DNA of 63,244 nucleotides, counting the filler, from Atractiella rhizophila (Eukaryota): the NCBI GenBank assembly GCA_021432655.1. It is 4 parts of 4 records of this genome, joined end to end, with 100 filler letters (N's around TTAATTAATTAA, not from the genome) between each part and the next. Parts side by side here need not be neighbours in the genome. Positions count along the whole stretch, not along the records: positions 20,009 to 50,275 come from MU271579.1; 3 more parts are not named here. One strand, written 5' to 3'. This document shows positions 20,009-48,160 of this stretch, piece after piece. Under the pieces are notes generated by a model. That model searched no databases and was not told where the DNA came from. It saw only the letters and a program-made list of their open reading frames with translations. Each line of letters opens with the position of its first letter. Positions within the stretch are counted from its first letter, which is position 1. The position numbers were made by a program, and so were the translations under genes.

Positions 20009-20791
20009 CAGTTCACACTCCATGTTCCTCTGAACTGCTGAGAAAAAGACGGATGATAAGCACGCGTCTTATACTGCAGCCTCAGCAAGTGAGAGAGCGA
20101 TAGCATCCCCGCTGGATACCCCACAGCGACTATTCATTAACGCCAAAGTGAATGCTTTGCTGCGCTGGTGCAGATATTGGATCATTGAAGTGGAGATTTG
20201 GTTTAGCCAGGAGACTCGAAACATCTTTGAGATTGCTATAAAGCTAAGTGAACCAGAACGACAGCCCTCTAATTGATTACGAGGTACTCAACGTCATAGC
20301 TGGTTTTAAGAGCTCGAGCGTTAGGAGTGAAGCTCGCTGCCCGAAGGCACATTCATAGGTAGCAGTTGCGAGTTCAAAAAAGGTCATAAAATGGCATAGG
20401 AACTTCGCTACCATTGTCTATCAAAAGCGCCGAAGAAAGCGCACACCTAATTCGATTACCCAGCAGCTGCTTTCAAGTCATCCGACTTGAGAGGACAGGT
20501 AGCTTCAGACATTCCAATCGTCAACATCCATAATATTCATACGCGCATCTAAAACCTTTTCCCGTTAGGAGAAATAACGCATGCCTGCTCAGGGTGGGTG
20601 AGAAAAGGAGTCTCCATCCAGGATCCATCCGGACGGACCTCGAATTGCAAATTGCCTCGCTAATATTTGCTGAGTCCAACTGAGTCTTTCAACTTGAACT
20701 TCAAGTCGGCTTCCATTCGCCATTCGCCATAGAAAATCACGATCGTGCCTAGACAGTTCGACATCGTCGTTCAGAGCTTTGGAGTGCTACA

Positions 20792-23198
20792 ATGGTTTCT
20801 GCTCCAGTACCCGACAAGAACTCTCATGTTTTGATTCTCGACAATTACGACTCGTGAGCGCCTGTTGTGCTGCATGTTCATTTGTTGATCAGATAGCAGA
20901 TTTACCTGGAATTTGTATCAACTTGCATGTCGCTTATCCGCAAGAGTTACGGTTATTCGGACGCAGGATATCTCTCTCGAAGCCCTGGTCGCCGAATCAT
21001 CATCGCAACCTCTTCCCTATACCCACCTCATAATTTCCCCTGGCCCTGGACACCCTGACAGTGATAGTGGAATATCTATCCCCGCGATCCATCACTTTGC
21101 TGGCAGAATCCCTATCTTCGGAGTTTGCCTTGGGCTTCAGTGCATCTTCACTGCATTCGGTGGCACTGTCGATGTGGCCGGAGAGATAGTTCATGGAAAG
21201 ACATCTGAGATCTTTCACGATGCCAAAGGGATCTTTTGGGGGATCGAGAAGCAGGGATTCAATGCCACCAGGTACCACAGCTTGGTTGGGAAGCTGGGCA
21301 CACTGCCGGATGTGCTGGAGGTGACAAGCAAGACGCACAACGGATTAGTAATGGGAGTCAGACACAAAAAGTGGGTCATCGATTCTGTTCAGTATCATCC
21401 CGAGAGTATCTTGTCGGAGGAGGGGGAGACGATGATGCGCAACTTCCTGCGATTCAAAGGAGGCCTCTGGGAAGAGAATCCTGGATTTGGCATCACCATG
21501 GTCGAGCAAACAAGCGGCAAGCTTCCCACACCCATGCCTGCCCAAGTCCCCAGCATCCTTCAGAAGATCTATGCTCAGCGGAAGCAAGACGTCGAAAAGG
21601 CGAAGAACACCCCCGGTTTCTTCCCTTCCGATCTTGATTCTCTCATCAATCTTCATGTCGCACCTCCAGCCATCGACTTTTACTCTCGATTGCTGCCAAC
21701 GACAGCGAAACCTGTCTCCCTTCTGGCCGAGATCAAACGTGCTTCGCCTTCAAAGGGGTCCTTCCTCGAACCGGGGATGAAGCCTCCATCCAGCGCCGAG
21801 ATCGCCCAATCTTACGCCAACGCGGGAGCAGCCGCAATTTCCGTTCTGACGGAACCTACCTGGTTCAAAGGAGCTTTGAACGACATGCTTGCGGCGCGGC
21901 AAATTGTAGGGACGATGCCCAATCGACCAGCCATCTTGAGGAAGGATTTCATATTCGACAAGTACCAGATCGATGAAGCGCGAGTATCTGGCGCCGATTC
22001 AGTCCTTCTCATTGTTGCCATGCTTCAGCAGGAAGAGTTGAAAGCGCTGTACGACCATTCAAAGAGTAGGGGAATGGAGCCTTTGGTGGAAGTGAATAAT
22101 GAGGAGGAGCTGGAGAGAGCGCTCCAGATTGGTGCGAAGGTGATTGGCGTCAATAATCGCAATCTCAACAATTTTCAAGTCGATATGGACACCACGAAGC
22201 GTATTATGGCTGAAGTCAAGAAGCATTTTTCATCTCAGACAGCTAACGGAACCGCCGCTTCATCGACACCTCCTCTCATTCTTGCTCTTAGTGGCATCTC
22301 AAGCCGCGCCGATGTGCAAGAATACGAACGAGAGGGGATTTCTGGAATCCTCGTCGGAGAATCCTTGATGCGTGCTTCCGATAGGAAAACGTTCGTGCAT
22401 CAACTTCTTGGGACGACCAACACAGTCGTTAAACCAGCCGGAACGCTTGTAAAAATCTGCGGCGTCAAGAATGTTGCGACTGCACTACTTTGTAAAGACG
22501 CAGGCGCAGACTTTATTGGTCTTAATTTCGTTCCCAGCTCCCGTAGAAAGATTAGTCTCAGTCAAGCAAAGGAAATTGTTGATGCTCTACGCAAAACAGG
22601 TGGAAGAATGGCTGCGCCAATGACGCGAACGGACAGTAGGATTGGAACGAAGGAACTGGGAAAGAAGGACTGGTTTGAATACTCCACGTTTGCGCTGATG
22701 AACAAGTCTGTTTCGGAGAAGCCACAAGTGGTCGGCGTTTTTCAGAACCAACCACTCGAGTTCGTTCTCGAAGCCATCGCCCTGCTTGACCTTGACGTGG
22801 TCCAACTTCACGGTCACGAACCAGCTGAGTGGGCACAAGTGATCCCCCGTCCCGTCATTCGCGCTTTCCACGTTTCAAATCCTCCCACTCCACAGGTCCT
22901 TGAAGCCACACGGCCAGGATATCACGCGGTCCCATTGTTTGATACGCAATTGCCTGCTTCCTCGCTTTCAGGCGGCGCAGGGAAGACGTTCGATCATCAA
23001 CTTGCAAATCAAATCGCTGGAGATGTCAAGTTCATCCTTGCTGGTGGATTGACTGCCAACAACGTCGCAGAAGCGGTTAGGAGGACGAGGCCGTGGGCCG
23101 TGGATGTTGCAGGTGGAGTTGAATCGGATGGAGAAAAGACAGAGGAACTCATCAGAGCCTTTGTCACGTCGGTCAGAGAGGCTTCAGCTTCCAATTAA
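20792..23198 (+). CDS. TRP1: Trifunctional tryptophan biosynthesis protein (anthranilate synthase component II / IGPS / PRAI)
   Basis: ILDNYDS|FTWNLYQ, ISPGPGHP, GVCLGLQ, TRYHSL, QYHPES; AEIKRASPSKG, LRKDF, GVNNRNL; VKICG, QLHG, LAGGL, VDVAGGVE. One intron near the 5' end. Confidence 0.97.
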
Positions 23199-24987: not shown

Positions 24988-25304
24988 ACGGTTTGTTAAT
25001 CTGGATGATGGAGTTATTGTACTTGGGCGTTAATATTCCAAAAATGAACCCATGCAATTATAGGCAGGTCCAGGATGGCAAATCTCTCGAACACCCCAAT
25101 CACGACGTCGTAATCTCCTCCGGACAGTTCGGACGAGCTGTTGGATATATTTAATCCTTTGAGCTTTGAGAGAGCTCGAGAGAGTTGATACATTCTGATT
25201 GTAAACTTCACACATCACAATCTCTTCAAGTTCGCATGCACGGAGCAATTTCCTCCACCTTCAGCTCTCTCTACTTCTTTCTTCCCTCCTCTAATATCAA
25301 TGAA

Positions 25305-25710
25305 ATAGGTGGCCTCGTCATCGGCTCTTTCATATTATTAGGTGTCAACAGGCGAAATGCCACGATCGATTCCAACACCGTCTCCATTCAGTCTGTCACC
25401 CTTTCATCTCTCCCTCCTGTAAGGCGACGAGTTGACTAGGGATGAATGGATAGGTGCGCATTCCCGGAACCAGCAGGGAGCAGGCTTTCTATCTCACATC
25501 TACGATTAGATGGGCAGCCAATGGAACGTTCCTGGAAACTCCCATGTCAGCTCCCACGAAGGCAAGTGGCAGGGCTCGGATCCCCTCAGTCTCAGTACCA
25601 CGGTCGATGTAACGTCAACATTCCACGCGGGAGACAAGCCTACTCCCAGCCACCCGACGATCGCGATATCACGATGTACAGTTTGTGTCACCACTACTTC
25701 CATCCGCGTA
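25305..25710 (+). pseudogene. 3'-half pseudogene copy of the MP88-like gene at 46829-48160
   Basis: Nucleotide similarity to the reverse complement of ~46880-47287 (ggtggcctcgtcatcggctct vs ggcggcctcgtcatcggttct; tggataggtgcgcattcccggaac vs tggataggtgtgcattcccggaac). In-frame stop (TAC GAT TAG vs TAC GAC GAG), indels, no 5' half. Confidence 0.85.
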
Positions 25711-25885: not shown

Positions 25886-27872
25886 TTACAAACTCTTGTA
25901 CGCATTGTACATCACGCGCATCTTCTTCCTTGCGTCAGCGGAAACGTGATAACACAGGAGCTGGACCAGTAGCTGGAACGCTTCCGCCCTCTCAAACGGA
26001 TCTAGAATATTGAATTCCTTTCCCTGATACACCTCTCGGTAGTTGTCTCCCAAATCGGAGTTGGTAACCAACGCCGACAGGTATTTCCTGGTGAAAGTGG
26101 TCTTCACCAGGTGCATGAAACAACCGCGAAACGAAATCAACCACACCTGAGAAATATGTTAGGTGCTTCGGCTACTGAAATTGCCACACTCACCTCTTCC
26201 TCTGAAGCAAAGTCTGTGAAGTCGGTCAGGTCAATGTATTTATGATCACGCAAAGACTTCAAGGCCCTCCCGAGCATTTCCGCGTCTTGCTGAGGGAGCA
26301 TGCCGAAGGGGTTGTCTTTGTGTTTGACGGTTGTTTTCACCTGCATTTATCACTTCAGTTCAGACCGGGAAGATGAACTGAAGACGAACTTCAATCTGGA
26401 TGACTGGTTGACGTTCAGCAGCTGCAATCCGCCACTCCCTACCCTCAACTAAGACTGACATTTCCCCTAAGCCCTCCGTATCCCGCAGCGGACCGAAGGC
26501 TTCCTTTATCGAATCCACGTCCTGGACTTCTTCTTCCTCTTCATCTTCCTCCTTGATCGCTGAAGCGGATGAGGATGCTTTTGGATCGGAAGCTGGGGTC
26601 GTTGCTGGTTCGGACTCAAATTGCATGATCACGATTGCCCCATCGTTTCTGCACTGGTAAAGTTGAGCTGGTTTTTTTCCCTCTTTGCCCTTCGTTTGTC
26701 CACCCATCACCCAGGAAATTTGTTGGTGATGACGGCTACGAGAAATGAATGATGAAACCAAGACGCCAGAGAAGACAAGGAAAGGTAAGCACCACTCACC
26801 TCAGGCCTAACCAAACAAACTCCTTAGGTACCGTTTTCTTCCGAGTCCGCTTAGAGACACCACGACAGGCCTTCTTCTTCCAGGCTAAAGCATTCCCTTT
26901 CATCATTTTGTCTCCATGCCTAAGGCCGCACGCTCGGAGAGTAACGCCAAGCATTTCATACACGACATCCTCAACCACTGTTTCTTGCTCAACGGCAGGG
27001 CTGTACAGTTTCTGTTTCTCCTAAAGTGAAGCGGCAGGCAATTCAGCGATAGGTTTATGAACGAGACCTGAACTTACACGCTCAGGTCCCTCCCCTTCGC
27101 CTTCAGTGGACTGATCAGGCTCTTTTTCTGCCTCCTGCGATTGTGAACAAGAGGATGGGGTTTCACCCCCGGAAGCCGGAGACACAATATCGGAATCCTG
27201 ACTGCCGACATACTTAGTCTCAGGAATACGAAGGACTGTGCGTGTAGCGCAATTCAGAGCCGTCCTCAGTTGTCCCAGGTCGTGGTGCGACATGTCTTCA
27301 CTAGAGAGAGAAGCGAGGAGCTCTTTGTAAACTCAAACTAGCTATCAGCTTCTTTCTGTTCACAATAACTTAACGACTTACTGGGTGACTTCGTCACAGA
27401 ACGGAATTTGTCCGTTAATGGAATCATGCCTTTGAGATCGACGTTGCAGTTGGGTAGAACGCGTAGGGCTCGAAGGTTGTCCTTGTTCCAAAGACTTCCA
27501 CTTCGCACGATCCTTTCGTCCAGAACAATCTTGCCATATTTCGGATTTGAGTAAGCCTCAATCCATTTTTCGCGCCCCTCGTTGATTGCTGGCCATTGAT
27601 CTGAACAATACTTCAAAACAGCACTTCAGAGTGAAATACTCACCTTCGTCGCTACTTGCACCATCTTCATCCGATTCATTTGATTCTTTATACGGTTCTT
27701 CTCCCACTCTCCTTTTTTTGGCATCTGAGCCGCAACTTGTGAGCTTCCCGGAAATAGATGAAAGTTAAGTACCCCTAGGAGGTTGTTGGCGCAAGCGCTT
27801 GTTGCTTTCCGGCAATGGCTCAGTGCTGCCAGAAGAAGTATCTGCGGTTTGATCAGTTTCGGGTGATTTCAT
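25886..27872 (-). CDS. Orphan family A copy 1: putative PD-(D/E)xK-fold nuclease
   Basis: Spliced model MKSPETD...KKRR...RSGSLWNKDNLRALRVLP...EQETVVEDVVY...LYQCRNDGAIV...QPVIQIE|VK...MLPQQDAEMLG...VWLISFRG...EFNILDPFERAEAF...NAYKSL. Colinear with 44521-46576. One junction needs a GAG acceptor at 27334-27332. Confidence 0.7.
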
Positions 27873-31532: not shown

Positions 31533-33154
31533 ATGGGGTTATACGCAAGAAACCTTTTCCAACAACGCAAAGACAACATGAACTTACGGAATAGAAATCT
31601 ACTACGAACACGTACGGCATCTTCGTTGGGGGATTTTCCTCTACAGAGTGGATCTGGACGTCATGCTTCCGCGCATAACACTAGGCAAGGCAAAACAAGA
31701 CGCAACGCTACAAGAGACCCACTTTTTTCAATACGCCCCTTCAGCTCTCGAACTCGACTCCCTATTAGTTCCATTCATCGACATGAGCTGCTCGAGAACC
31801 CGTTCTATCGCAGATACATCTGTGACGCATCGACGCTGCCAACACTTACTGGACACAATCTCACGTCTCCAGGAGCGTACAAGTTCCAAGCAGATTTGTC
31901 AGATTGGAACGATGAACATGTCCTTGCTTGCCGCGTCGTCCCATTGACGGGATTGCCCATTCAGCGTGTCATCCCAGAGGAATACTTAGAGGACGTCTCA
32001 GGTAGGATACGGTTGACAATGCGGCACGGCTGACAGAACTTTAGAGCTTGAACAACGCCTCATTCTGGACTTCGAACGATTCTCCGTAGAGGAGCTGGAG
32101 TATGGTTGTGCTGAGGATATCCCTCGCACAAACTTGATGTCGAAACCGTTGCAATCACTGAGGCGTATTCTAGCAACTGACTCCATGGTCAATGTCGGGC
32201 ATGCCTGCTATCTCATTGAAAGAATTCTTTCACCGCTCTTGCAAAACTCTGTTTTGAATTTAGAAAACAAGAGATTCAGGTTTCGATTCGAGTAAGCGCT
32301 CCATGCAGAAAGACTATTATTGATCGTTGCTAGCACGAAACCGAGAGTAGAAAATAGCGCGACCTTGGGTGGTGAAACAAATTGGAAACTTTCCGCCTTA
32401 TCTTCATTGGTTTTTAAAGACGTGACGGACTCAGAATTGCATTTATTGGACTTGGGCGAGGAAGATATTCCAGTAGTTGGGTTTTACTTCCAGGTTACCT
32501 TTCCTTCAAAACCGTTTTATTTTTCCAACTAATGCGTCTTACCTCAGCACCGTAAAGCATTTGTTCCTGGGCCGCGTGAGGGAGATGGCTCGGGTTGGAG
32601 CCTATACGCTGATTCGGATGTCAGCTCTATCTGCTCCGATGTCAGCTCAGATGTCAGCTCTATTTTCTCAGCCTCCCCACCACCTCCACGACCGACAGAG
32701 TCCATACATCTGAGAGGGATCAACATTCCTAGTCCTTCTTCGTATGCTCAAGAGCTTGGCATGATGATAGTACACATCACAGCTAACAGCACATTTTACG
32801 GCGTTGGAGATTGCGAGGTGCGCATAGCTAGTGTTCTTTACGAGGTTACTGAGTGCTGTTGCTGTCTAGGCTTTTGTTATCGGCATGAACCACACACGGA
32901 TGCACATCTCCGCCGCTTTCTTCCCTTCAGAGCACATCCTCGAAGCGATGAAGAACCCGGTCCTCCCGACAGACTCACTAGTCTACTTTCTTCAGAGTGA
33001 GGAGTTTGACCTTGCGCTGCCAGAGGGAAGAAGGGACGGCCTAAGGGCGCTTATAGCACTATTCAAATATATGCTTTCCGGTGAAGTAAAGATTGGGAGA
33101 ATGAAGAAATTTGCCAAGGAATTGAAAGCTCGCCGTGCGGAGCTGAAGCGGTAG
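31533..33154 (+). CDS. Orphan family B copy 1: putative catalytically dead nuclease-fold paralog of family A
   Basis: Apparently intact 5-exon model: DLSDWNDEHVLACRVVP...TLGGETNWKLSALSSLVF...PVVGFYFQ|HRK...SYAQELGMM...E|AFVIGMNHTRMH...SEEFDLALPEGRRDGLRALIALFKY. Confidence 0.75.
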
Positions 33155-36026: not shown

Positions 36027-38217
36027 TCACTTCTTGCGTTTTGGAGGAGGAACCGATACTGCACTCATTGGCGGTCGTTTAACGCTCGTCATCCTGCAGA
36101 TCATCAGCTTCATGACCTTGATGTTCAGAGTGCATACCACTGGAAAAAATCACAGCGAAACTCCGGATTCACGTCTTTGATATCCTGTCCCGTGTCGTAT
36201 CCTTTCCCCACTGGTCGAGCACATTGCCAAAACTACAACCCGAAGTCAGCAGACCGTATCTGTGGGCGAGTGGAACATCAACTTTACGGCCCTTGTTAGG
36301 ACCAGTTTTGTTGACGGTCCACATCTTGCAGGGCTCATCGTGACCTGTACAGTTCGGAACTACCGGAGGAGCAAAGATATTAGACCAAGCGGTTCGCGTG
36401 TCCTCCTGGGCGACTCGGATTTCTTCCAACAATTCAGGTGGAAATTCTTCTTCTTTCATTTCGAGCGGTGCGGATGTAGAAGTGGAAGCAGCAGGAGACT
36501 CTAGTCCAGATGATTTACGTCTTTTCGGTCTAGACCGTTCTTGCTCTTCGTTTTCGAAAGACGAACGTCGTTTCAGACACTGCTCCTCCTTTTCTTTGCT
36601 CTTCGTTGCAGGTGTGGTAAAGAAATTGGCGAGAGTTGGCTGAACAGAAGACTTGTTCTTTTTCTTCTTCGAGTTAGTGGACGAGGAGCGTTCGGCTTCG
36701 GAGGTCGATTTTCTCTTCTTGGAAGAAGACCGTTCCTTCACAGGCGACGATGCTGCACCGGCAGAGGAGACGGTAATCATGGATGATTCCTGAGAGAGAG
36801 CTGAGGATGTACCGTTGTCAACGGCTGAGGAAGAGACATCTGTTGATGAGGGAGGTCTACTGTTTGCCGCCTCCGGAGCTAGTGAAGACTCCGCCTTCTT
36901 GTTGAAGAAGGTGGTTAATGTGCCTTGTTTGAACTCTTGGTAAAATTTTGCCGCAAGTGGGGGAGGTTCAACTTCCTGGTCCTTGGCTCTACTAGGATTG
37001 AGTTGGTCCCACAACCTGAACGTTTGTCCATCGACCTGGATTTCCTCCCGAAATGTCGCTACGACAGGGCAATGATCGCTACCTTTTATGTTGGGTAGGA
37101 TATCACAACCATCGATCCAAGGAAGAAGACCATGAGTGACAAGGATATAGTCAATTCGAGTGCCATAGTTTGAAGCTCGCGCATCAATCTTCGTGTTCCA
37201 GCAGGTAAACATCTTCTCTCGGTCTGGATGGAACTTCCTGCAGATGTCGATGAGAATCCCGTTCTCGTTGATAAGATTGTCGAGCCATCGACGAGACGGG
37301 TGCCAATACCAGTCTGTGATTCCGTGCTCCTTCATCCTCCCTTCAGGATCGCAATGATCTAGCGGACGATGACAGATATTCATGTCCCCAACAACGACAA
37401 CCTCCCTCCCTGCCTTCATTAAACCTCTAACTCTAGATTCCAACATAGATTCGTATCGATTCTTGTATTCCAGTCGGTCATCATTCGTCTCGTTCGGGCA
37501 GTAAAGGTTGATGAGAACAAACAGGGACAGATCAACCATCGTGCAGCGGCCTTCACAGTCCAATTCGAGGATCTCATTGAAAGTTAAATCAAGAGACTCT
37601 AATGAAGGATGAGGGAGGATTTTAGATGAGTCGGAAAGAGCGGCAACGGTCTTTAGTCGGCCAGAAAGACCCTCTTCAGCCTTCACGGGAACGACGGTCG
37701 ACTTCTTCGTGTAGATTCCAGTGCCGGAGTAACCCTTAACTGGGACGCGCTGCACAAAGGCATAAATCAGTTACAGTATTATTAGCTGTGTAATGACCAT
37801 GATTAACCGAATAGAAGGAATAAAAGCAATCGAACTCGTTCATGATGCACATATTCCGCTCGACTTGCTTTCGTGTCATTTTCGTTTCTACCACCACATT
37901 CTACGGCACCCTTCGCATCATTAAGAGAGGACGCACCTTGTACACACACAATGTCTGCATCCATGTTGGCAATTATCCCTTCATAAGAGCTGTTTGGTTT
38001 GAAGTACTCTGACCAACTGGTACCGGCTTTCACTCAGCTTATTTCGCGCTATCAAAGAGAGCACTTGCGGGTGATAGTAAGGAAGTGTTTTGAGTCCGTT
38101 CTAGGTACCACTTCAGTCCAGACAGACGGTTCGTGTTTGCTTACGATATTCCATGTCTAACCGCGACAATAGGTCATGACTGTCAGCTGTGAACTGAGTA
38201 CTCACCATTAGCTTCAT
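36027..38217 (-). CDS. APN2: AP endonuclease 2 (ExoIII family with C-terminal GRF zinc finger)
   Basis: MKLM|TWNI|NGLKTL, ADIVCVQ, KGYSG, LINLYCP, VVGDMN, TCWNTK, GTRIDYIL, GSDHCPV, PIP-like QGTLTTFF, CTGHDEPC...GPNKGR...FRCDFFQW. Confidence 0.93.
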
Positions 38218-38837
38218 CCCAGCCGTGTTGGCCCAATAGTTGCTTAGTAGCTGTGGAGCTCTGAAGTCTTAAAAGACCTAGCGCGGCGGTCCAAGCTGTT
38301 GATAGTGGTCGTTTGACTCTGCCGGAGTGGCAACACCAGAACGCGAGAGTGGAATCTCGATCAACGCTCAACATAGAATGAGCGAACGACGGAGGGAGCA
38401 AGCATATCAACAAGACAACAAAGGATTGGATGCTATTATAGGGAGCTAGGACATTGCACAATCTCATTTACGACTTCCAGGTAAGCGCAGGATATTCCAC
38501 TGTTGTAAATGGGTGGGAGCACATTGAGCGGTTTAGAACAATGACAAGGTTGTTGAATCTATTTCGGACTAGAGCAATTCCTCTACAAGCATTGTTCCGC
38601 GCACTGAATTCAGGACTTGTTATCTGTAATGGATGAATCTACCTTATTCTAGCACATGTAATCCGGAGGAAGTAGGTGCAATGAAGTAGATGTGCCGCCT
38701 TGATTACATGTGGAGGATATGGAGCCTCTACCGGTGTCAACATCTACGCTACTTCGATTTTCTCAAAATCTATACAAACCTCTCCCCTTTCTCAATGTTT
38801 TGGATGTGCTCATTCGTTCTAAGGCAAACACAATATC

Positions 38838-39923
38838 ATGCTCCTCGTTTTAACTCACCCTCTCGCTTTGTCCACCTCCTATGTTGCATCCCTCTATCTC
38901 TTCAAACCGCGTCAACAACCATCTTCAGATGCACCGGTTCACCTGCCGCGAGACAATCCCGCTGTGATCCGAGCTCGCCTAACAGGACTTTCACTCTCCA
39001 CAATCGCGTCTTTCGGACTACTTGCTCTTCGTTATCACCGCTCTGGACTCTCGATACTCGGGTGGAGAGGGTTGTTTGATCTCCTTGGCTTACAAGTCGA
39101 CCGTCAAGCCATCAAAGCAAGTATCGTTGGAGTGGGGTTGACAGCATCCCTTTTTGCCGGGCCTCTTTTTGTTGAGTTTTTGGATCGAAAACTCCCAGGA
39201 CAGAAGTGGTTCAGCTTGAAGCGTTGCTGGGGAGATGTAACGAGTTGGATCGGGCTGCGGAACTGGGTCTTTGTATGGGTTTATTGCTTCTGCTAGTCCA
39301 CGGAGCTGAACTGAGTCAAGGCACCGTTGACGGAGGAGCTGATTTTCCGCTCTTTCACGTTCGCTTCCGAGTTCATTATGACCAACGGAATGGTAGACTG
39401 GAAATGGCTTGTATTCTTTACACCCGTTTATTTTGGAGTTGCTCATGCACATCATATTTGGGAGTCCTATGTGCAAAGTGGGAGGACAAGGGATGGACTG
39501 ATCAGAGGAAGCATCCAAGCTGGTATGTCTTTCCCTTGTATTGGTAATTCTACAACTAATTTGTCAAAGCTTTTCAATTCTCCTACACTACACTCTTCGG
39601 ATGGTACTCGAGCTATCTCTTTTTCCGAACAGGTGTGCTTCTCCGATCTAGCACTAGCACAACCTGACTAGCGACAGGTTCTGTTTATCCTTCCATCTTC
39701 GCCCACACCTTCTGCAATATGATGGGCTTCCCAACTTTGGGATACGATCTTGATCGCTATCCGGAGAAGAAACAATGTCTGTCCCCCCTCTCACACAGGG
39801 CTATCGTTAATCAAAGTCATAGCCATTATCTGCTCTTACATCGCCGGTATCGTTGCTTTCACGGCTGGTATGGTCAGATTTGTGCATACGAGGGAATTCG
39901 TTTATTGGCCAGCGCTCCTTTGA
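38838..39923 (+). CDS. RCE1: CAAX prenyl protease 2
   Basis: YVASLY, RDNPAVIRARL, LFAGPL, LRNWVF, TEELIFR, FGVAHAHH, FGWY, HTFCNMMGFP. Confidence 0.92.
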
Positions 39924-40049
39924 TCTGTTTCAGTCGTGGATTCAATTCACTTCAAGCGGTTTTTGTTACAGTTTGTTTACAACGCAGCGGTACATCTGAT
40001 AATATAAAAACAAAAAATGAGGCAGCTCAAAATGGAGAACAACACTGTG

Positions 40050-41523
40050 CTACCGCATCAGCTCCGCATGGCGAGCTTTCAATTCCTTTGCAAATTTCTT
40101 CATTCTCTCGATATTCGCTTCATCTGAAAGCACATATTTAAGTAGTGCTATAAGTGCCTTCAGGCCGTCCCTTCTCCCCTCCGACAGCCCAAGATCATAT
40201 TCCTCACTCTGACGAAAGTAGACCAGCGAATCAGTAGGAACCACTAGATTTTCATCGCTTTCACGACGTGCTTGGAAGGGAAGAGAGCAGCAGAGATGTG
40301 CATCCCAGCGCGATTCATGCCGATAACAAAAGCCTAGATAGCAACTCAGCACTCATAATGAATGCTTACCTCACAACTTCCAACGCCATAAACTTTACTG
40401 TTACTTGTGGCGTGCGCTATCATCATGCCAAGCTCTTGAGCGTACGAAGGAGGGCTGGGGATGTTGATCCCTCGCAGGTGTGTGTGGAGGCGACGCCGAC
40501 AAAATAGGGCTGACATCTAGATCGTCCGGATGCCGATCTAGGTACGCGCGTTTCTCTTTATTCTCCCTTTGCCAGTGCAGGCTCGATAACAAGTCTTCTC
40601 CCCATGCCGTCCTTGTACAAATGCTTTACGATGCCAAGTTAAAGGTCATTAGTGGAAGTAACACGGTCTTTTATGGGTGGTGACCTGGAAGTACAATCCA
40701 ACTGGAATGCCATCTTCCTTGTCCAACTCATACTCCGTCAAGTCTCCGTCACGTCTTTAAATATCAGTGAAGAACAGACGAAAGTTTCCGGCTCGTTTGA
40801 CCCCCAAGGTCACGCTATCTTCTAATCTGGATTTCGTGCTAGCCAGGATCAGTCCATTCTGCGTGTATTAACACTCACTCCTACCGAAGTTTGAATATCT
40901 TGTTCTTGACCGCTAAAGAACCGGTTTGCGTCAAATACTGGGCATGAGCCACATCGACCATTGAGGCGCGATCCGCCTCAGTGATTGCAATGGGCTAGCC
41001 ATCAAGTTTGCGTTAGGGATATCTTGCTCATAGCCATTCTCTAGGTCTTCTACAGAGAAATGCTCGAACTCGAGAATGAGGTATTGTTCAAGCTCTAAAA
41101 GTTCTGTCAGCAAGACTACGTCTACACTCGTTCCTGTCCTACCCTACCTGAAACATCGTCAAAGTATTCCCTTGAGATGACGTGCTGTATGGGCTGTCAA
41201 TGGGACAACACGGCAAGTTAGAATGTGTTCATCGCTCCAACATGAGGAAACCACTTGGAATTTCTTCACTGCGGGTGGGGTGACATTGCATGTAAGAGTG
41301 GGAAGCGCTGATACGTTACAGATGTCGTCTTTGGTTGGAACAAAGAGAAAGTCGAGTTCGAGAGATGAAACGGCGAAGTGGGGACAATTGGTGCGCGCGC
41401 TTTCCGCGTCGTATTTTGCGCTTAGCGATCTTCCGCATAGAACCATGGGATCCGCGCAGTGGGAACCTGGGCTGCTGACTAGTAAATGTGGATGTGCGTC
41501 GTAGTTTCTATTTGTAAGATCAT
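40050..41523 (-). pseudogene. Orphan family B copy 2, pseudogene (closest to copy 1)
   Basis: Homologous blocks (WSDEHILTCRVVPLT; LEQYLILEFEHFSVEDLE; PTDSLVYFRQSEEYDL..EGRRDGLKALIAL..FAKELKARHAEL) broken by frameshifts and stops (e.g. just after the ATG and at KAMKI*). Confidence 0.8.
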
Positions 41524-42432
41524 CTTAACGTAATGTTCTTGCTAGGAAGTTACGATGGGTTTTGCTGCGGCATCGCACGAAAACGAAAACAGCAGGAGAA
41601 TTTAAGAAAATCTGACCTGAGCGTAAGAGCGTTGAGGACACCAAGTTGCTAAAGTATGCGCTAGTAGGAAGAGAAGTCACAAGGGAACGGGGACCAGTTC
41701 TCGCCTTTATGACCAGGAACATGAATGAGACCACTGTCGATGTCGACTACTTATAAGTGAGATGGCGGTGAGGATAACAAGCCCTGGAAGCCGGGAAGAA
41801 GGCCAGGCGCTAGCTTTGATTACATTGCCAGCTATATTGCATTTCGCTGCGTCGCCAGGGGAACCAATGAAAGAAAAAATGAACAAGAGTGAGGAAGAAG
41901 GTCGACTTACAACTGTACTCGAATTTTACAGCCTGAGCGTATTTCACCAGTTGACATGTTTGTGGGGTAACAGTGACCAAATTCATGTTTCATTGATAGA
42001 TTAAATATAGTAGATCAAAGTTTGCAATTGTTTTACATCGTTTTCGTTCTTTTGTGAGTATTAAATTATGTTGCGCCCACCTGTGTCGAATTCTGCTCCA
42101 TTCTCTTGTGGAGACACTCATATATTGCAATGACCAATGACGAAAATATCATGATGTAGAGAGAAAAGCCATGTGGGTATTTATTTATTCTTGTTTTTGT
42201 TTGGAAACTTTGTCGATTCCTGTGAATAAGACGTGGACAAAGCACGATTGGCTTCAAGTTGGATCAAACGTGTTCGGATGCGCTCCTGCCCTTCAAATGA
42301 GCTGTAATTTACTCCGGTTCTGGCAGGTAATCTAGTTATAACATGCTTTTATGTTATTCAAAACTGTCTGCGACAGCACAATGAAGTATAAACGGAGAAA
42401 GACGAAGCACCTCGAATAGAAAGCCGCATTTG

Positions 42433-44083
42433 CTACTGTTTCTGTTCTTCATGACGAGATTTCAATTCCTTCACAAATTTCTTCATCCTCCCAATCTTCG
42501 CTTCACCTGAAAGCACATATTTGAACAGTGCTATCAGTGCCTTCAGGCCGTCCGTTCTTCCCTCTGGCAGTGCAAGGTCAAACTCTTCACTCTGAAGAAA
42601 ATACACCAGCGAGTCTGTTGGGAGGACGGCATTCTTCATGGCTTCTAGGATGTGTTCTGAAGGGAAGAAAGCGGAGGAGATGTGCATTCGTGTGTGATTC
42701 ATGCCTATAACGAATGCCTTGACGGGGTTCAGTGACTATACATCCACAAGCCCGAACAAACTGACCTCATGATCAGCAACTCCGTAGGCTTTACTATTAG
42801 CGGTAAGCTGCGCTAACATCATGCCTAGCTCTTGCGCATGTGAAGGAGGGCTTGGAACATCCTTTCCCTTCAAATGTAGAGACTCTGATGGCCGAGGGGG
42901 AGGTGTTGGCGTAGATACGATGGAACTGACATCCGATTCAGGATGCTGGCGCTGATACTCGCGTTTCTCCTCATTCTCTTCATGTGCATAACGACAGTCT
43001 GCCTTCTCTTCCGACCAGCGCCGCCCTTCAGCAAAGGACTGAGCATGCTAAGAAAGGATTATTACTCTGATTTTTGCGACATAAATGCTCTTGCCTGAAA
43101 ATAGAATCCAACCACAGGAACACGCTCTTCTTTATCGACGAAGGCAGTATGATATTCGGTCACGTCTCGAAATATAATGGATGAGTAGAGGGTCAATTTC
43201 CAATTGGTGTTGCCTCCGAGAGTAACGCTGCTTTCGACATGTTCCTTGGTGCTGCTTGAAATGTCAATTGTGGGTTTGTCGACTAAACCACTCACCAGAA
43301 ACAAAGTTTTAGCCTTTTCTCTCCTATCTGCAGCTTTGAGTCGTCAAAGAGACCCCAAGTAATTTCATCCATCAGAGTTTGCGCCAGCCGCACCCCAGAC
43401 ATCCACTCGCTCCTTAATATCGATCTCAGAGTCAACAATGGAGCGACCATCAAGCTGCCCATCGGAATAGATGCTTCAGAGCCATATTCCAGATCTTCCA
43501 GAGAAGGTCGTTCAAAATCTTGAATGATTCGGTTCTCGAATTCTGAACATGAGTGCTTTAGCCAGTTTCTCTTCTTGTTATAGAGCGCACCTGTCAGATG
43601 ATCAAAGTATTCTCCAGGAATCACATGTCGTATCGGCAGCGCTGTTAATGGGACAACTCTGCAGGCAAGGATGTGATCATTGGTCCATTCCGATAGATCA
43701 GCCCGAAACGATTGAGGTGTGGAGAAACTCGAATTTCGCCCTGTGAAAGATGGCAAAGATTGTGAATCCGAAGTGTATCGTTTGTAGAACGTGTTTCTTA
43801 AAAGTTCTTCTTCAATAATGAGATGGACTGGCATTCTTGTTCTTGTAGACAACTGGCGAATGGAAGTTGGCTGAGGTATCGGTACTGGGTCTTTGAGCCG
43901 CCATTTTCGCTTTCCAACCGTACGGGTGGTAGAGCGAGAGATGCCGAGCGGCAAATTCTGCTCTTGGGGGTAACGAGGTGTGGAAATGCGCTTTGGGACC
44001 AATTTCCTGCTCCGTAACTGCATATTTTCTTCTCGTTCGCGTCGAATTCTTTCGGTAGATATCTCATGTCGTGTTTGAACCAT
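42433..44083 (-). CDS. Orphan family B copy 3: putative catalytically dead nuclease-fold paralog
   Basis: DLSEWTNDHILACRVVP...TLGGNTNWKLTLYSSIIF...PVVGFYFQ|HAQ...SHAQELGMM...AFVIGMNHTRMH...SEEFDLALPEGRTDGLKALIALFKY. Third intron is GC-AG (donor ~43094). Confidence 0.75.
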
Positions 44084-44520
44084 GTGAGGTCTGCATTGAA
44101 GCTACTGTAAAAGTAAAAACGGCAAAAAAGACACCATACGCGGTATGAGAAATGTGCAGTATTCGGCAGATGATCCCAATGTCAAGCACAATTACTTCCA
44201 GGAGTGGAGAGGGCGATCACGTGAGCAAGATACAACAACATAGGGTACGTAATCGGCCTTCCAGGCAATCAAAACTTTGCACTTTATCTCATGTCCAAAT
44301 AAATCACGACTCCACCTTGTAGTGTTGCCAATAGGCACGCATTTTCATGTCTTGCCTTGTCAACTTCTGACCTTCTAGCTAGGCTGGGCTTAGGACAAAC
44401 AAATCATAAAAGCGTTTTCAATACGGATCTTGATTTCTTTGAAGTTGGAGGAAATGCGAAGTGCGACTATAAATGAGCATTAAGAGCGTTGCTTCAATTC
44501 TGTCAGTGTTTAAGTCTCAA

Positions 44521-46576
44521 ATGGCATCGGAATCTCAAGCTGCAGAAGGATTTATCGACAGTAGCACAGAGCTCATCAAAGGTACGAAGAAACGTACTCG
44601 TAACCAGGTTCAAAATGGTAAGCCTTCACCAGATTGAATAGAATTAGGAGGCGTGATACCATGAAAATCGCTCGCAGAACCAAAAAAGAAGAAAGAGGAC
44701 GCGGACCGTTCTGACTCTAGTGGGTCGGAAACAGAAGTAGATTCTGAAGGAGACCCAGGTGTGTCTGTACCTTCTACCCGCACGGTGATCATACAAACAT
44801 TTCGGACAGGTAATAACAATGCCGCTGAAACCACCTACAAGCCATGGCCAGAGATCAAGGCTGGTCCCGATTCTTGGGTCAGCGCGTACAAAGAAGCAGA
44901 TCGAAAAAAGGTCCTCCTCAACAAGCGTGTCGTTCGGAGCGGCAGTAAGTGGAATGAGGAGAATCTTCAAGCGCTGCACGTCATTCCACACTGTGACGAG
45001 GATATCGCCACGATGATCCCAGATTCCACTGAGTTTGACGAGGTTGAAGAGTCGAGATGTTAGTATCATGCCATCGCAATCAGAGTGAAATACTGACTGT
45101 GATGTAGTGTTTGAGGAGATTTTATCAGCGGTGACGGAAGAGCACTCATCGAGTACCTACCTGAGAGACTTTCAAAACGCCTTGAGTTTTGCTACGCGTA
45201 AAGGCTTCCGTATTCCTGCCGTACACTACGACAAATCTCGACCTCCAGCTCAGGATCCCGAGCTGGAGTCCGAGCCAAGCACCCAAGGTTCTCCCCCTCC
45301 TTTTTCGGAAGGAGAAAGGGAAGAGACTTCACTTCTCGCAGTTCTCGAAGTGGACGTGGACGTGGAAAAGCCACCTGTTCTGGAACAGAAGAAAGTAGTC
45401 TTGGACTCCTCACCGTCGGCGCGAGCTAGCTCGTCTACCAAACCGGCCAAGAAGATCACCCAAGTTAAGGTTGCAGAGCAGGAAACCTCGTACGAGGAGG
45501 TCGCATACGCGTTCATTCGCCTTGCCTTGATATCATGTGGAGCTGTGCCGGGTGAAGAAGCGACGAAGAAGAACATCTTAGCTTGGCCTAATCGGAGGAC
45601 ACGGGAGAAGAGAAAGGTGAAGAGATCGTCGAAAGGGGCAGGACGACCCGTGGGAACCAAAAATTCCGAAGAATTCGTTTGGCTAGGATTAAGGTAGGTT
45701 GCATCCCATATCTGAGGTGCAGCAGCTGATGGCAGCCTAAATCACCACAGCCGACATCGTCAGGTCACTAATTGGGTGATGGGTGGCCGAACGAAGGGTG
45801 GTGCTGGCAGACCAGACCAACTGTATGTGTCGAGGACGGATGGGGCTATTGTTGTCATGCTGCTTGCGCCGGAGGAGACTTCAAAGGCTCAACCAGGCCC
45901 ACTTATTCCGAAATCCGACGAGGCTCAAGCTGAAGCTGAAACGGAGAACAGCAAGGAAATCAGCGTCAAAGATGCACTTGAACCTTTAAGAGACGCGACT
46001 CCAGAGGAAAAGGTCGTTCACCATCAAGGCAAGGAACGGTTGATAGTGGCTGCAGAGTCGCAGCCTGTCATTCAAATCGAAGTACGTCCTCACGTGCCTT
46101 GTACTTTAGCTAATAGTTCGACAGACAAAAACGAGTAAACATACTCCGTATCAGATGCTGCCCCAACAAGATGCAGAACTGATCGCCAGGGCACTGAAGC
46201 CATTGAAGGACCAGAAATACATCGATTTGAGCAAGTGCACCGACTTTTATCCCCAAGACGAAGTGAGTGGCACGTCAAGCGTCTTCTCCAAAACCTAAGT
46301 TGATTTCCTTTTCAGGCTTGGCTGATTTCGTTTCGAGGTTTACACATGCACTTCGTGAAGACTATCTTCACGGCTGACTATCTCGCTGCTCTGGTCAGAA
46401 AGCAAGACCTTGGAGATCTCTATCGAGACGACTACCAGAGCAAAGAGTTAGATATTCTAGACCCTGAGAAGCGCGCTGATGCTTTCTATTATTTAACCAA
46501 GCTTCTTTGTTATCACAGGTCCTCCAAAGCGAGACAGAACATGCGCGTACTTCACAATGCCTATAAGAGCCTGTAA
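44521..46576 (+). CDS. Orphan family A copy 2: putative PD-(D/E)xK-fold nuclease
   Basis: MASESQ...KKKK...RSGSKWNEENLQALHVIP...EQETSYEEVAY...LYVSRTDGAIV...QPVIQIE|TK...MLPQQDAELIA...AWLISFRG...ELDILDPEKRADAF...NAYKSL; canonical introns. Confidence 0.78.
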
Positions 46577-46828
46577 TCATTGATCTAATCGTTCTGTCCT
46601 CTTCTCTCGTTGGCGGCGGATACAAGTGGTCACCTCATGGACTGGTTACCTTTTTTGCTACTCCATCGATTTCGAACAATATTCGTTTATGTATTTACCA
46701 GCTTACTCGACTGCGTTGCAATGCGTCATAAGTGACTTTACATCACAGGCCGAAATTGGACAAGCAACAAACATTAAAGTAAAGAACGAAATTAAATCGA
46801 GTCCATTGTCCATCCACAATTCACAATA

Positions 46829-48160
46829 TTACTCCTCAGCAAAGGGGCTGGGGTCGATCCTATATTCCCTCTTCTTAGGATAAGCGGATCCAGCGATGGA
46901 AGTTGTCGTGGTGCAGCTGTACGTCTTAGTGGTCGGATGGGCAGCAGGAGTGGTCTTGTCACCCTGGTGGAAGGTTGACGTTCCATAAACACCGGGAGTG
47001 AGAGGATCAGAACCCTGGCACTTGTCGAAGTATCCAACGTCGTAGTTTCCGGGATCGTTCCATTCGCTGCCCATCTCGTCGTAGATGTGAGGGCAGTAAG
47101 CCTTCTCCCTGCCAGTTCCGGGAATGCACACCTATCCATGAATCCCTTGTCAGCTTAACAGCACAAAACTAGACATGAGGTGGGTGGACAAACGCGAATG
47201 GAAAGCGTGTTGTAATCGATGAACTCGTGCCATTCCGCATATTGGACTTTCTTGCCTTTAAGAGAACCGATGACGAGGCCGCCTATTCCACATGGTAAGA
47301 CACATCAAGGTGGCATCAGACCTGTCGAAAAGAGCGGAGTAAAGGAAGGAAGAAAGGTGGACAGACCAATGGGATTGCCCTTGCCGCTGGGACCATGAGG
47401 ATCAAGCTCTCCTCCCTCGTCGCCCTTCAACACGTTGACTTTGGTGAAGTCGCCGGTACAGGTGATTTGGAGGAATGACTTGGTTTGCAACCAGTGGCAT
47501 CTATTTGAAAGAGATAGTGTTAGAGGAGACGGCTGATACTGGGAGGAAAAGCACGACATACCCTTTCAAAGTCCCGGCAGGAATGAGCCTCGCACCGTGA
47601 CCTATTCAGTCGAATCTTTATCAGGGATGTACTGTCACATTCAAAGCACGAACCAGGTTTAGTGCACCAAGCTACCTGTTCACAAATCACTCATTTAAGC
47701 CTTCGTTCCGACTAAAAGGTAAGCAAGGAAGACGCACAACAGTCTCTTCGACGTCGCCGATTGTCTTACCCTTGCTCTGAGGAGCGAACATGCCTGTCGC
47801 GACCCCAATCAGCTTGAGCGATGGGGGATGGGAAGAGAAGGCACGGACACCAATCGTCGATGCTGTATATCCAGGCAGTTTGACACTTGCTATCAGACAG
47901 CAGAACGCTTCAGTAACTTGCCGAAGAGGAGTATACCAGAAACAGACCTGGAAGCGCTGTCAACAGTCCCACAGTCGTTGTACCCGCTTTGTCCCTTCCC
48001 ACCAGGAATCATCAGTCCCCCTTGCTCCATGGAAACACCGCCTGAAACTCACTTCTTCGCTCTGATGAGGAAGATTGTTGGGGTCGACAATTGCACCGGC
48101 TTTGACGAAGTTGAGCAGTGTGCCCACGAGAGCAACGGTTAGAAGGGTGGATTTGAACAT
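46829..48160 (-). CDS. Secreted Cys-containing glycoprotein, MP88/'macrophage-activating glycoprotein'-like
   Basis: Signal peptide MFKSTLLTVALVGTLLNFVKA; VAWCTKP, ARLIPAGTLKG, GDEGGELDPHG..GNPIGGLV, YCPHIYDEMGSEWNDPGNY. Family assignment is from memory of these motifs. Confidence 0.75.

Follow-up and report, generated by a model that had tools for sequence, protein, structure and literature searches.

A head-to-head pair of paralogous genes in Atractiella rhizophila: a candidate nuclease and its putative pseudo-nuclease partner

Two neighbouring genes of the fungus Atractiella rhizophila, here called A2 and B3, stand head to head at positions 42433..46576 of the 63,244-nt stretch of DNA that was analysed (the window: four parts of assembly GCA_021432655.1 joined end to end with 100 filler letters between each part and the next, positions 20,009 to 50,275 being taken from MU271579.1). 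Both genes are intact and spliced, and in one sample they are transcribed divergently from an untranscribed gap of about 300 bp. Their products are likely distant paralogs, as judged from profile alignment and intron position. The interpretation preferred here, tentatively and short of even confidence, is that the A type is a nuclease and the B type its pseudo-nuclease partner, in a locally duplicated, lineage-specific family.

The B3 coding region (42433..44083, minus strand) extends from an ATG at 44083 to a stop at 42433 and encodes 487 amino acids (aa), with exons at 44083-43591, 43542-43296, 43251-43095, 43047-42766 and 42717-42433 that are supported by RNA-contig joints. The A2 coding region (44521..46576, plus strand) begins with an ATG at 44521, ends with a stop at 46576 and encodes 580 aa in 7 exons (44521-44617, 44678-44758, 44810-45058, 45108-45693, 45751-46081, 46125-46262 and 46316-46576), connected by six GT..AG joints that are likewise supported. 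Introns in this window of fungal DNA are short and of the GT-AG type, and database proteins that match parts of its genes exactly are recorded as A. rhizophila hypothetical proteins. The transcripts were assessed by comparing four public sequencing runs with positions 42300-46700, divided into 30 bins. Run X3, the source of the joints, has the character of a transcriptome, in that 11 short stretches with ends CT..AC, CT..GC or GT..AG are missing from its contigs, which confirms 11/11 of the modelled introns (5 in B3 and 6 in A2). None of these splice joints was found in the DNA run X1, although X1 covers 30/30 bins. The two start codons and the 437-bp spacer between them (44084-44520), from which the original prediction of a divergent pair had started, were borne out by reading the models, and the RNA joints support both genes.

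Coverage by X3 reaches 28/30 bins, and both empty bins correspond to the intergenic positions 44211-44504, which are likely the shared promoter region of A2 and B3. On the B3 side, the transcript extends to at least about 44193 and contains an intron in the 5′ untranslated region (44091-44139, minus strand), where an X3 joint at 44090/44140 skips 49 nt and leaves 54 contig letters beyond. The proposed shared expression of the two genes is supported by the finding of both spliced transcripts in this one RNA sample. The further claim of a shared bidirectional promoter agrees with the untranscribed gap between A2 and B3 but does not extend to the second copies of the two genes, A1 and B1, which are split by a WD40 gene.

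Several features of the transcripts deserve mention. The B3 intron 43048-43094 (minus strand) is of the GC-AG type, as an RNA contig confirms; the corresponding intron of the paralog B1 (32494-32547) is GT-AG. One intron of each gene, at 43543-43590 in B3 (minus strand, 48 nt) and at 44759-44809 in A2 (plus strand, 51 nt), is in frame and free of stops, and neither is retained in the RNA contigs. Keeping them would add 16 and 17 residues, respectively, and alternative isoforms arising from their retention are possible. Residues 84-487 of B3 are 100% identical to P0002, an A. rhizophila hypothetical protein of 404 aa, the database model of which begins at a downstream Met, 83 residues late. The database search yielded no protein identical to A2, the closest being its paralog P0001 (78.7% identical), and A2 seems to be absent from the deposited annotation despite its clear expression. 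At this level of identity, P0001 represents a third A paralog.

Both X1 and X3 contain a second contig over 42496-42600 with 8 differences, matching none of B1, B2 (a B-type pseudogene, see below) or B3; hence at least one further B-like copy is present in the same organism, and its level of transcription is low. Only small parts of B3 are reached by runs X8 and X9, which were not used as evidence of expression or habitat. In X9, a soil metatranscriptome, two 151-nt contigs (42909-43059 and 43219-43369) are identical to the window and both cross B3 intron borders unspliced; they may represent DNA carry-over or pre-mRNA of Atractiella in soil.

The distant paralogy of A and B, which had been proposed at the outset, was upheld by three lines of comparison. 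Alignment with hhalign of four A-type sequences against two B-type sequences gave a probability of 88% and an E-value of 2.9e-6 over 116 columns, while BLASTP matched A2 with B3 at 28% identity over 75 residues (E 1e-4). The other three of the four A x B pairs gave no BLASTP match at E <= 1e-3, so the paralogy is remote. The third line is an intron in phase 0, which lies at the identical aligned position before 'AWLISF' in A and 'AFVIGM' in B; an intron in phase 2 before a T-N-W segment is conserved between A and B genes to within one codon. A correspondence between the intron after 'YFQ' in B and that after 'QIE' in A was considered and dropped, since hhalign sets the E-x-K of A opposite an H-L-K of B farther downstream. 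In a joint MAFFT alignment the two types are collinear over their whole length, with a common layout: the N-terminal motif S-x-W-(N/T)...(R/H)-V-(V/I)-P is followed by a helix in which a Glu is conserved, then by a G-G/T-N-W segment, a hairpin and a strand, and finally by a Gln-containing helix and a well-conserved C-terminal beta-beta-alpha module. In a tree rooted by midpoint only, the B type falls outside the A-type sequences as a whole and its branch is very long, and the A/B split is not datable from this tree.

The assignment of A to the nucleases is based on residues conserved in an alignment of the A-type proteins P0001, P0004, P0005 and P0006, which are 27-54% identical to P0001 (residue numbers hereafter refer to P0001). 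Seven residues are invariant in 4/4 sequences: D320, G321, E400, K402, Q414, A417 and E418. In A2, the Asp-Gly pair equivalent to D320 and G321 falls within T-D-G-A-I-V (aa 367-372, 45836..45853, plus strand). The E-x-K motif equivalent to E400 and K402 falls within Q-I-E-T-K (aa 446-450, 46073..46130, plus strand), split between Glu and Thr by the intron 46082-46124. The helix that follows, with the equivalents of Q414, A417 and E418, contains Q-Q-D-A-E (aa 462-466, 46164..46178, plus strand). That A would have a nuclease-type set of motifs was thus confirmed in the form of an invariant D-G...E-x-K...Q series. The catalytic pattern of the PD-(D/E)xK nucleases, D...(D/E)-x-K, is present in the A type, including A1 and A2, and absent from the B type.

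In B3, hhalign places L-H-L-K-G (aa 356-360, 42865..42879, minus strand) opposite the I-E-T-K of A, with His in the place of Glu. The sequence H-L-(K/R)-G was found in 4/4 B copies (B1, B3, P0003 and the B2 pseudogene), the basic residue being Lys in B3 and Arg in B1, P0003 and B2. As aligned, the B type thus departs from the catalytic consensus at the central acidic residue; it would be catalytically dead, and its conserved His may matter. It had been claimed that only A keeps the acidic and Lys residues of a nuclease. This holds for the Glu of E-x-K, which B lacks, but it is too broad otherwise, as B keeps the Lys or Arg and also an Asp or Glu before the preceding strand, which MAFFT puts opposite the Asp of A. 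In the MAFFT alignment, Q414 is the sole motif residue invariant over A and B jointly.

Further copies were located by tblastn of exon translations against the window, followed by manual gene modelling. The second A-type gene, A1 (25886..27872, minus strand, ATG at 27872), encodes 542 aa in 8 exons, is 40.3% identical to A2 and retains N-D-G and I-E-V-K; P0004 matches its last 241 aa with 100% identity. The second intact B-type gene, B1 (31533..33154, plus strand, ATG at 31533), encodes 476 aa and is 53.5% identical to B3 and 93.3% identical to P0003. B2 (40053..41507, minus strand) is a B-type pseudogene in tandem with B3, in which the homologous segments are scattered over different reading frames and separated by stops; a frameshift is also found within its last exon, which is elsewhere the most conserved. 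Self-BLASTN of the window returned inverted matches for B1/B2 (70.5% DNA identity over 1424 bp), B1/B3 and A1/A2, and a block downstream of A2 (46947..47290) is 72% identical, in inverted orientation, to positions 25301-25646 downstream of A1. On account of these matches the locus is one inverted segmental duplication, [block-A1-(WD40 gene)-B1] versus [B2 pseudogene-B3-A2-block], of which the block at 46947-47290 marks the outer end. No conserved single coding frame was found in the two blocks, which may represent a conserved 3′ untranslated region or regulatory element, or else what is left of a small gene that was duplicated along with the rest.

In the first arm, a distance of 3.66 kb separates A1 from B1 and a WD40 gene on the minus strand lies within it, so that the two have no shared promoter. 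Comparison of the A2/B3 spacer with the upstream regions of A1 and B1 revealed only chance 8-9-mers in common. The original prediction had also pointed to the second A and B copies as diverging from each other. These exist and do point apart (A1 from 27872 on the minus strand, B1 from 31533 on the plus strand), but they are not an independent case, since they belong to the same duplication: 2/2 intact A genes in the window have a divergent B within 4 kb, and both instances come from one event. In total, B1, the pseudogene B2, B3 and P0003 were found on the B side, versus A1, A2 and P0001 on the A side.

Nei-Gojobori estimates of the proportions of nonsynonymous (pN) and synonymous (pS) differences were 0.371 and 0.792 for A1/A2 (526 codons), and 0.299 and 0.725 for B1/B3 (473 codons). 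The saturation of pS in both comparisons implies that the duplication is old, and the lower pN indicates purifying selection on both the A and the B subfamilies. Over the last 120 aligned columns, the dN/dS of B1/B3 falls to 0.07-0.10, which marks B as a gene under constraint rather than a copy in decay.

The surroundings of the locus consist of housekeeping and core-genome genes. Neighbouring open reading frames (ORFs) encode a TRP GATase-IGPS-PRAI protein, a WD40 protein, an Exo_endo_phos protein with a GRF zinc finger, an Rce1-like protein, an Arm-repeat protein, an aconitase, a prolidase-like protein and a glutamine amidotransferase. The arms of the duplication are separated by about 7 kb containing the Exo_endo_phos and GRF gene, a single ORF of 533 aa (36169-37770, minus strand) resembling the APN2-like repair nucleases, and the adjoining Rce1-like gene (about 38690-40141). 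The trifunctional tryptophan-pathway protein (GATase, IGPS and PRAI) is encoded by an intron-free ORF of 769 aa (20889-23198, plus strand), which is unusual, as most genes of the window have many short introns. No transposon-type domain was found in the ORFs scanned around the locus. A transposon origin was dropped, as these ORFs contain no transposase or recombinase domain and self-BLASTN revealed no terminal repeats.

The family is very small, fast-evolving and almost confined to A. rhizophila. A phmmer search with P0001 against 1.84 billion representatives returned 4 proteins at E <= 0.001, namely P0001 itself, P0004, P0005 (610 aa, 35% identity to P0001) and P0006 (279 aa, 34%). In word-indexed searches, 1 of 12 candidates was of the A type, while 2 of 54 and 2 of 7196 candidates were of the B type. 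The database places P0001 on a single contig of 11,051 bp and the two B-type proteins on contigs of 42,137 and 44,261 bp; the contig of P0001 gives a weak hint that an A gene is able to exist without an annotated B beside it. Metagenome scans with the A alignment and with P0005 confirmed no related locus. No literature was found under PF20516/PDDEXK_12, the nearest named family (see below), and among the A. rhizophila genome papers listed, none concerns the A/B family, as judged by title and the start of the abstract.

In the proposed interpretation, A2 and B3 belong to the ordinary chromosomal gene complement, as members of a small family nearly restricted to Atractiella. The A type would be a metal-dependent PD-(D/E)xK nuclease, in which the Asp of D-G together with E-x-K would hold the metal while the Lys would activate water. 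It would probably act in the nucleus, given its basic clusters and the lack of a signal peptide. The B type would have been born from an A-like gene by local inverted duplication; if B is such a copy of A, the head-to-head position is explained by this origin itself. B would then have swapped the central Glu for a conserved His to become a pseudo-nuclease. The A-B pair, with its downstream block, was later copied as one inverted segmental duplication to give the A1...B1 and B2-B3-A2 arms. Within a hetero-oligomer with A, B would most likely be the non-catalytic partner or the one that provides specificity, a role as antidote being less likely. Co-regulation of A and B and formation of a heteromer are plausible additions by analogy with other nucleases.

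In many eukaryotic nucleases an active subunit is combined with an inactive paralog, as in XPF-ERCC1 and MUS81-EME1. The pair described here resembles these in having one putative catalytic subunit and a diverged, apparently inactive paralog retained under selection. It differs in that XPF-ERCC1 and MUS81-EME1 contain ERCC4 and (HhH)2 domains, neither of which has a Pfam match in A or B, and in that their genes are not adjacent as A2 and B3 are, so that the comparison concerns working logic only. With the PD-(D/E)xK superfamily the A type has in common a helix Glu, D-G, E-x-K and Gln in canonical order, invariant in 4/4 sequences. What sets A and B apart from it is their conserved N-terminal domain, together with a long acidic stretch inserted into the hairpin that connects the D strand to the E-x-K strand. 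The fungal family PDDEXK_12 (PF20516) is the nearest named family by language-model features, with no match by hidden Markov model (HMM) at E <= 1. A and B can be regarded as an unmodelled, lineage-restricted variant within a known kind of protein, matching no curated model. Crinkler-type effectors with restriction-endonuclease toxin domains are similar in being eukaryotic proteins with a possible restriction-endonuclease-like C-terminal domain, from which A and B differ by the absence of a signal peptide or Crinkler header domain upon inspection of the models, the absence of a Pfam match and their housekeeping neighbours.

Several results weigh against the proposal of a nuclease with a pseudo-nuclease partner. 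Pfam searches with the exons and with full-length A and B proteins gave no relevant match at E <= 1: P0001, P0002 and P0003 matched nothing, while P0004, P0005 and P0006 had unrelated below-threshold matches alone. The gathering score of the PF20516 HMM was not reached by any A or B protein searched, no match was obtained in NCBIfam, and sequence profiles of A, A+B and B found nothing relevant in PDB. AlphaFold models were poor, with a mean predicted local distance difference test (pLDDT) score of 35.3 for P0001 with a shallow A alignment and of 50.4 for P0006, a short relative that headed an alignment of six sequences. The C-terminal module alone was confidently predicted (pLDDT 65-82). With these models as queries, Foldseek against PDB returned nothing at E <= 0.001 and the VIA wide fold search gave a best Z of 4.3, which is at noise level; a type IIG restriction enzyme at rank 25 (VIA Z 3.1) was not counted for the same reason. 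Among the ESM Atlas clusters that have a Pfam family, the nearest belong to PDDEXK_12 (0.81-0.82), followed by a type I restriction HSDR_N cluster (0.80), and the ten best named matches are all in the PDDEXK_12 family or its clan. Scores of 0.81-0.82 are, however, in a range reached by shuffled proteins a third of the time, which makes them a lead at most. In the absence of a family, PDB or fold match, the nuclease assignment therefore rests on the motifs and on this weak language-model lead, and nuclease activity of A is suggested at the level of motifs. Furthermore, B still has an acidic residue, a basic residue and the Gln, hence it might be active with an altered chemistry, and binding of A to B is proposed by analogy with active/inactive nuclease pairs. 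Prediction of a complex between P0001 residues 215-532 and P0002 scored 0.00 in both runs, in which the alignments were unused, and counts neither way. Finally, a selfish family could also account for the narrow and patchy distribution, for the presence of several diverged copies and for the pseudogene.

These points bear differently on the alternatives. That A is not a nuclease, its D-G, E-x-K and Gln being a coincidentally conserved surface on an unknown fold and both proteins having lineage-specific structural or regulatory roles, would account for the lack of an HMM, PDB or fold match, for the restriction of confident structure to the C-terminal module and for Atlas scores within the range of chance. 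Against this stand the seven residues, invariant in canonical order and spacing at identities down to 27%. In addition, the order of elements in both low-confidence models (a helix, a hairpin around D-G, a strand ending at E-x-K, the Gln helix and further strands) appears to fit the alpha-beta-beta-beta-alpha-beta core of these nucleases, and this alternative is regarded as unlikely. A stronger competitor, possible although doubtful, holds that the adjacency of A and B is historical and that the two are now independent, B being maybe a DNA- or protein-binding factor unlinked to A. As A and B are paralogs, tandem or inverted duplication accounts for their position without functional coupling. 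The separation of A1 and B1 by the WD40 gene, the lack of promoter motifs common to both arms, the location of the A-type P0001 on a contig other than those of the two B-type database proteins and the greater number of B copies all agree with it. It explains less well why the divergent A-B order was kept in both arms despite saturated synonymous sites, and why A2 and B3 are expressed in the same RNA sample; moreover, inactive enzyme paralogs commonly work with active relatives. A mating-type-like HD1/HD2 pair was also considered and was dropped, as Pfam found no homeodomain.

The original prediction had favoured a toxin-antidote, killer or allorecognition module, in which A would be a toxic nuclease and the co-expressed pseudo-nuclease B would neutralise it. 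The premise that a PD-(D/E)xK domain acts as the toxin in Spok meiotic drivers is correct, as PMC6660238 assigns the killing activity of SPOK to a predicted PD-(D/E)XK domain. The Spok genes of Podospora (PMC6660238) resemble A and B in their predicted PD-(D/E)XK domain with its catalytic Lys, in being patchily distributed and in occurring as several diverged copies within a genome. They differ in combining killing and kinase-dependent resistance in one protein (PMC6660238), whereas A and B are two genes in which no kinase or other Pfam domain was found. The head-to-head arrangement of A2 and B3 about 300 bp apart, the expression of both, the central catalytic Glu kept in A and lost in B, and the occurrence of a tiny patchy family with several diverged copies and a pseudogene in one genome would suit such a module. 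The locus, however, lies amid housekeeping genes, without transposon or Starship-like features in the scanned ORFs, and its copies are old, under purifying selection and without signs of recent spread. A1 and B1 lack a shared promoter, the P0001 contig carries no annotated B, and Pfam detected no known antidote domain. The DNA run X1 contains a single haplotype at the A2/B3 locus, with 1 substitution and 1 single-base deletion, and no sign of hyper-variable alleles. Nothing found in the locus speaks for toxicity, decoy action, allorecognition or selfishness, and this interpretation, which we consider quite unlikely, is not favoured.

Should A prove to be a nuclease with B as its inactive partner, the two would define an unannotated, lineage-specific branch of the restriction-endonuclease-like superfamily in fungi, and would offer a compact natural case in which an enzyme and its pseudo-enzyme paralog have stayed head to head. 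The most dramatic outcome, to which we give only a slim chance, would be an undescribed two-gene killer-protector or allorecognition module of basidiomycetes, with an active nuclease and a neutralising paralog spreading by local duplication. Were it true, Pucciniomycotina would gain its first two-gene nuclease system of this kind, with relevance to fungal gene-drive biology. Less dramatically, A and B may represent a new family of heterodimeric nuclear nucleases, composed of a catalytic and a His-substituted subunit. The practical gain at present is smaller and consists of corrected, RNA-supported gene models and of a defined set of motifs for mutagenesis.

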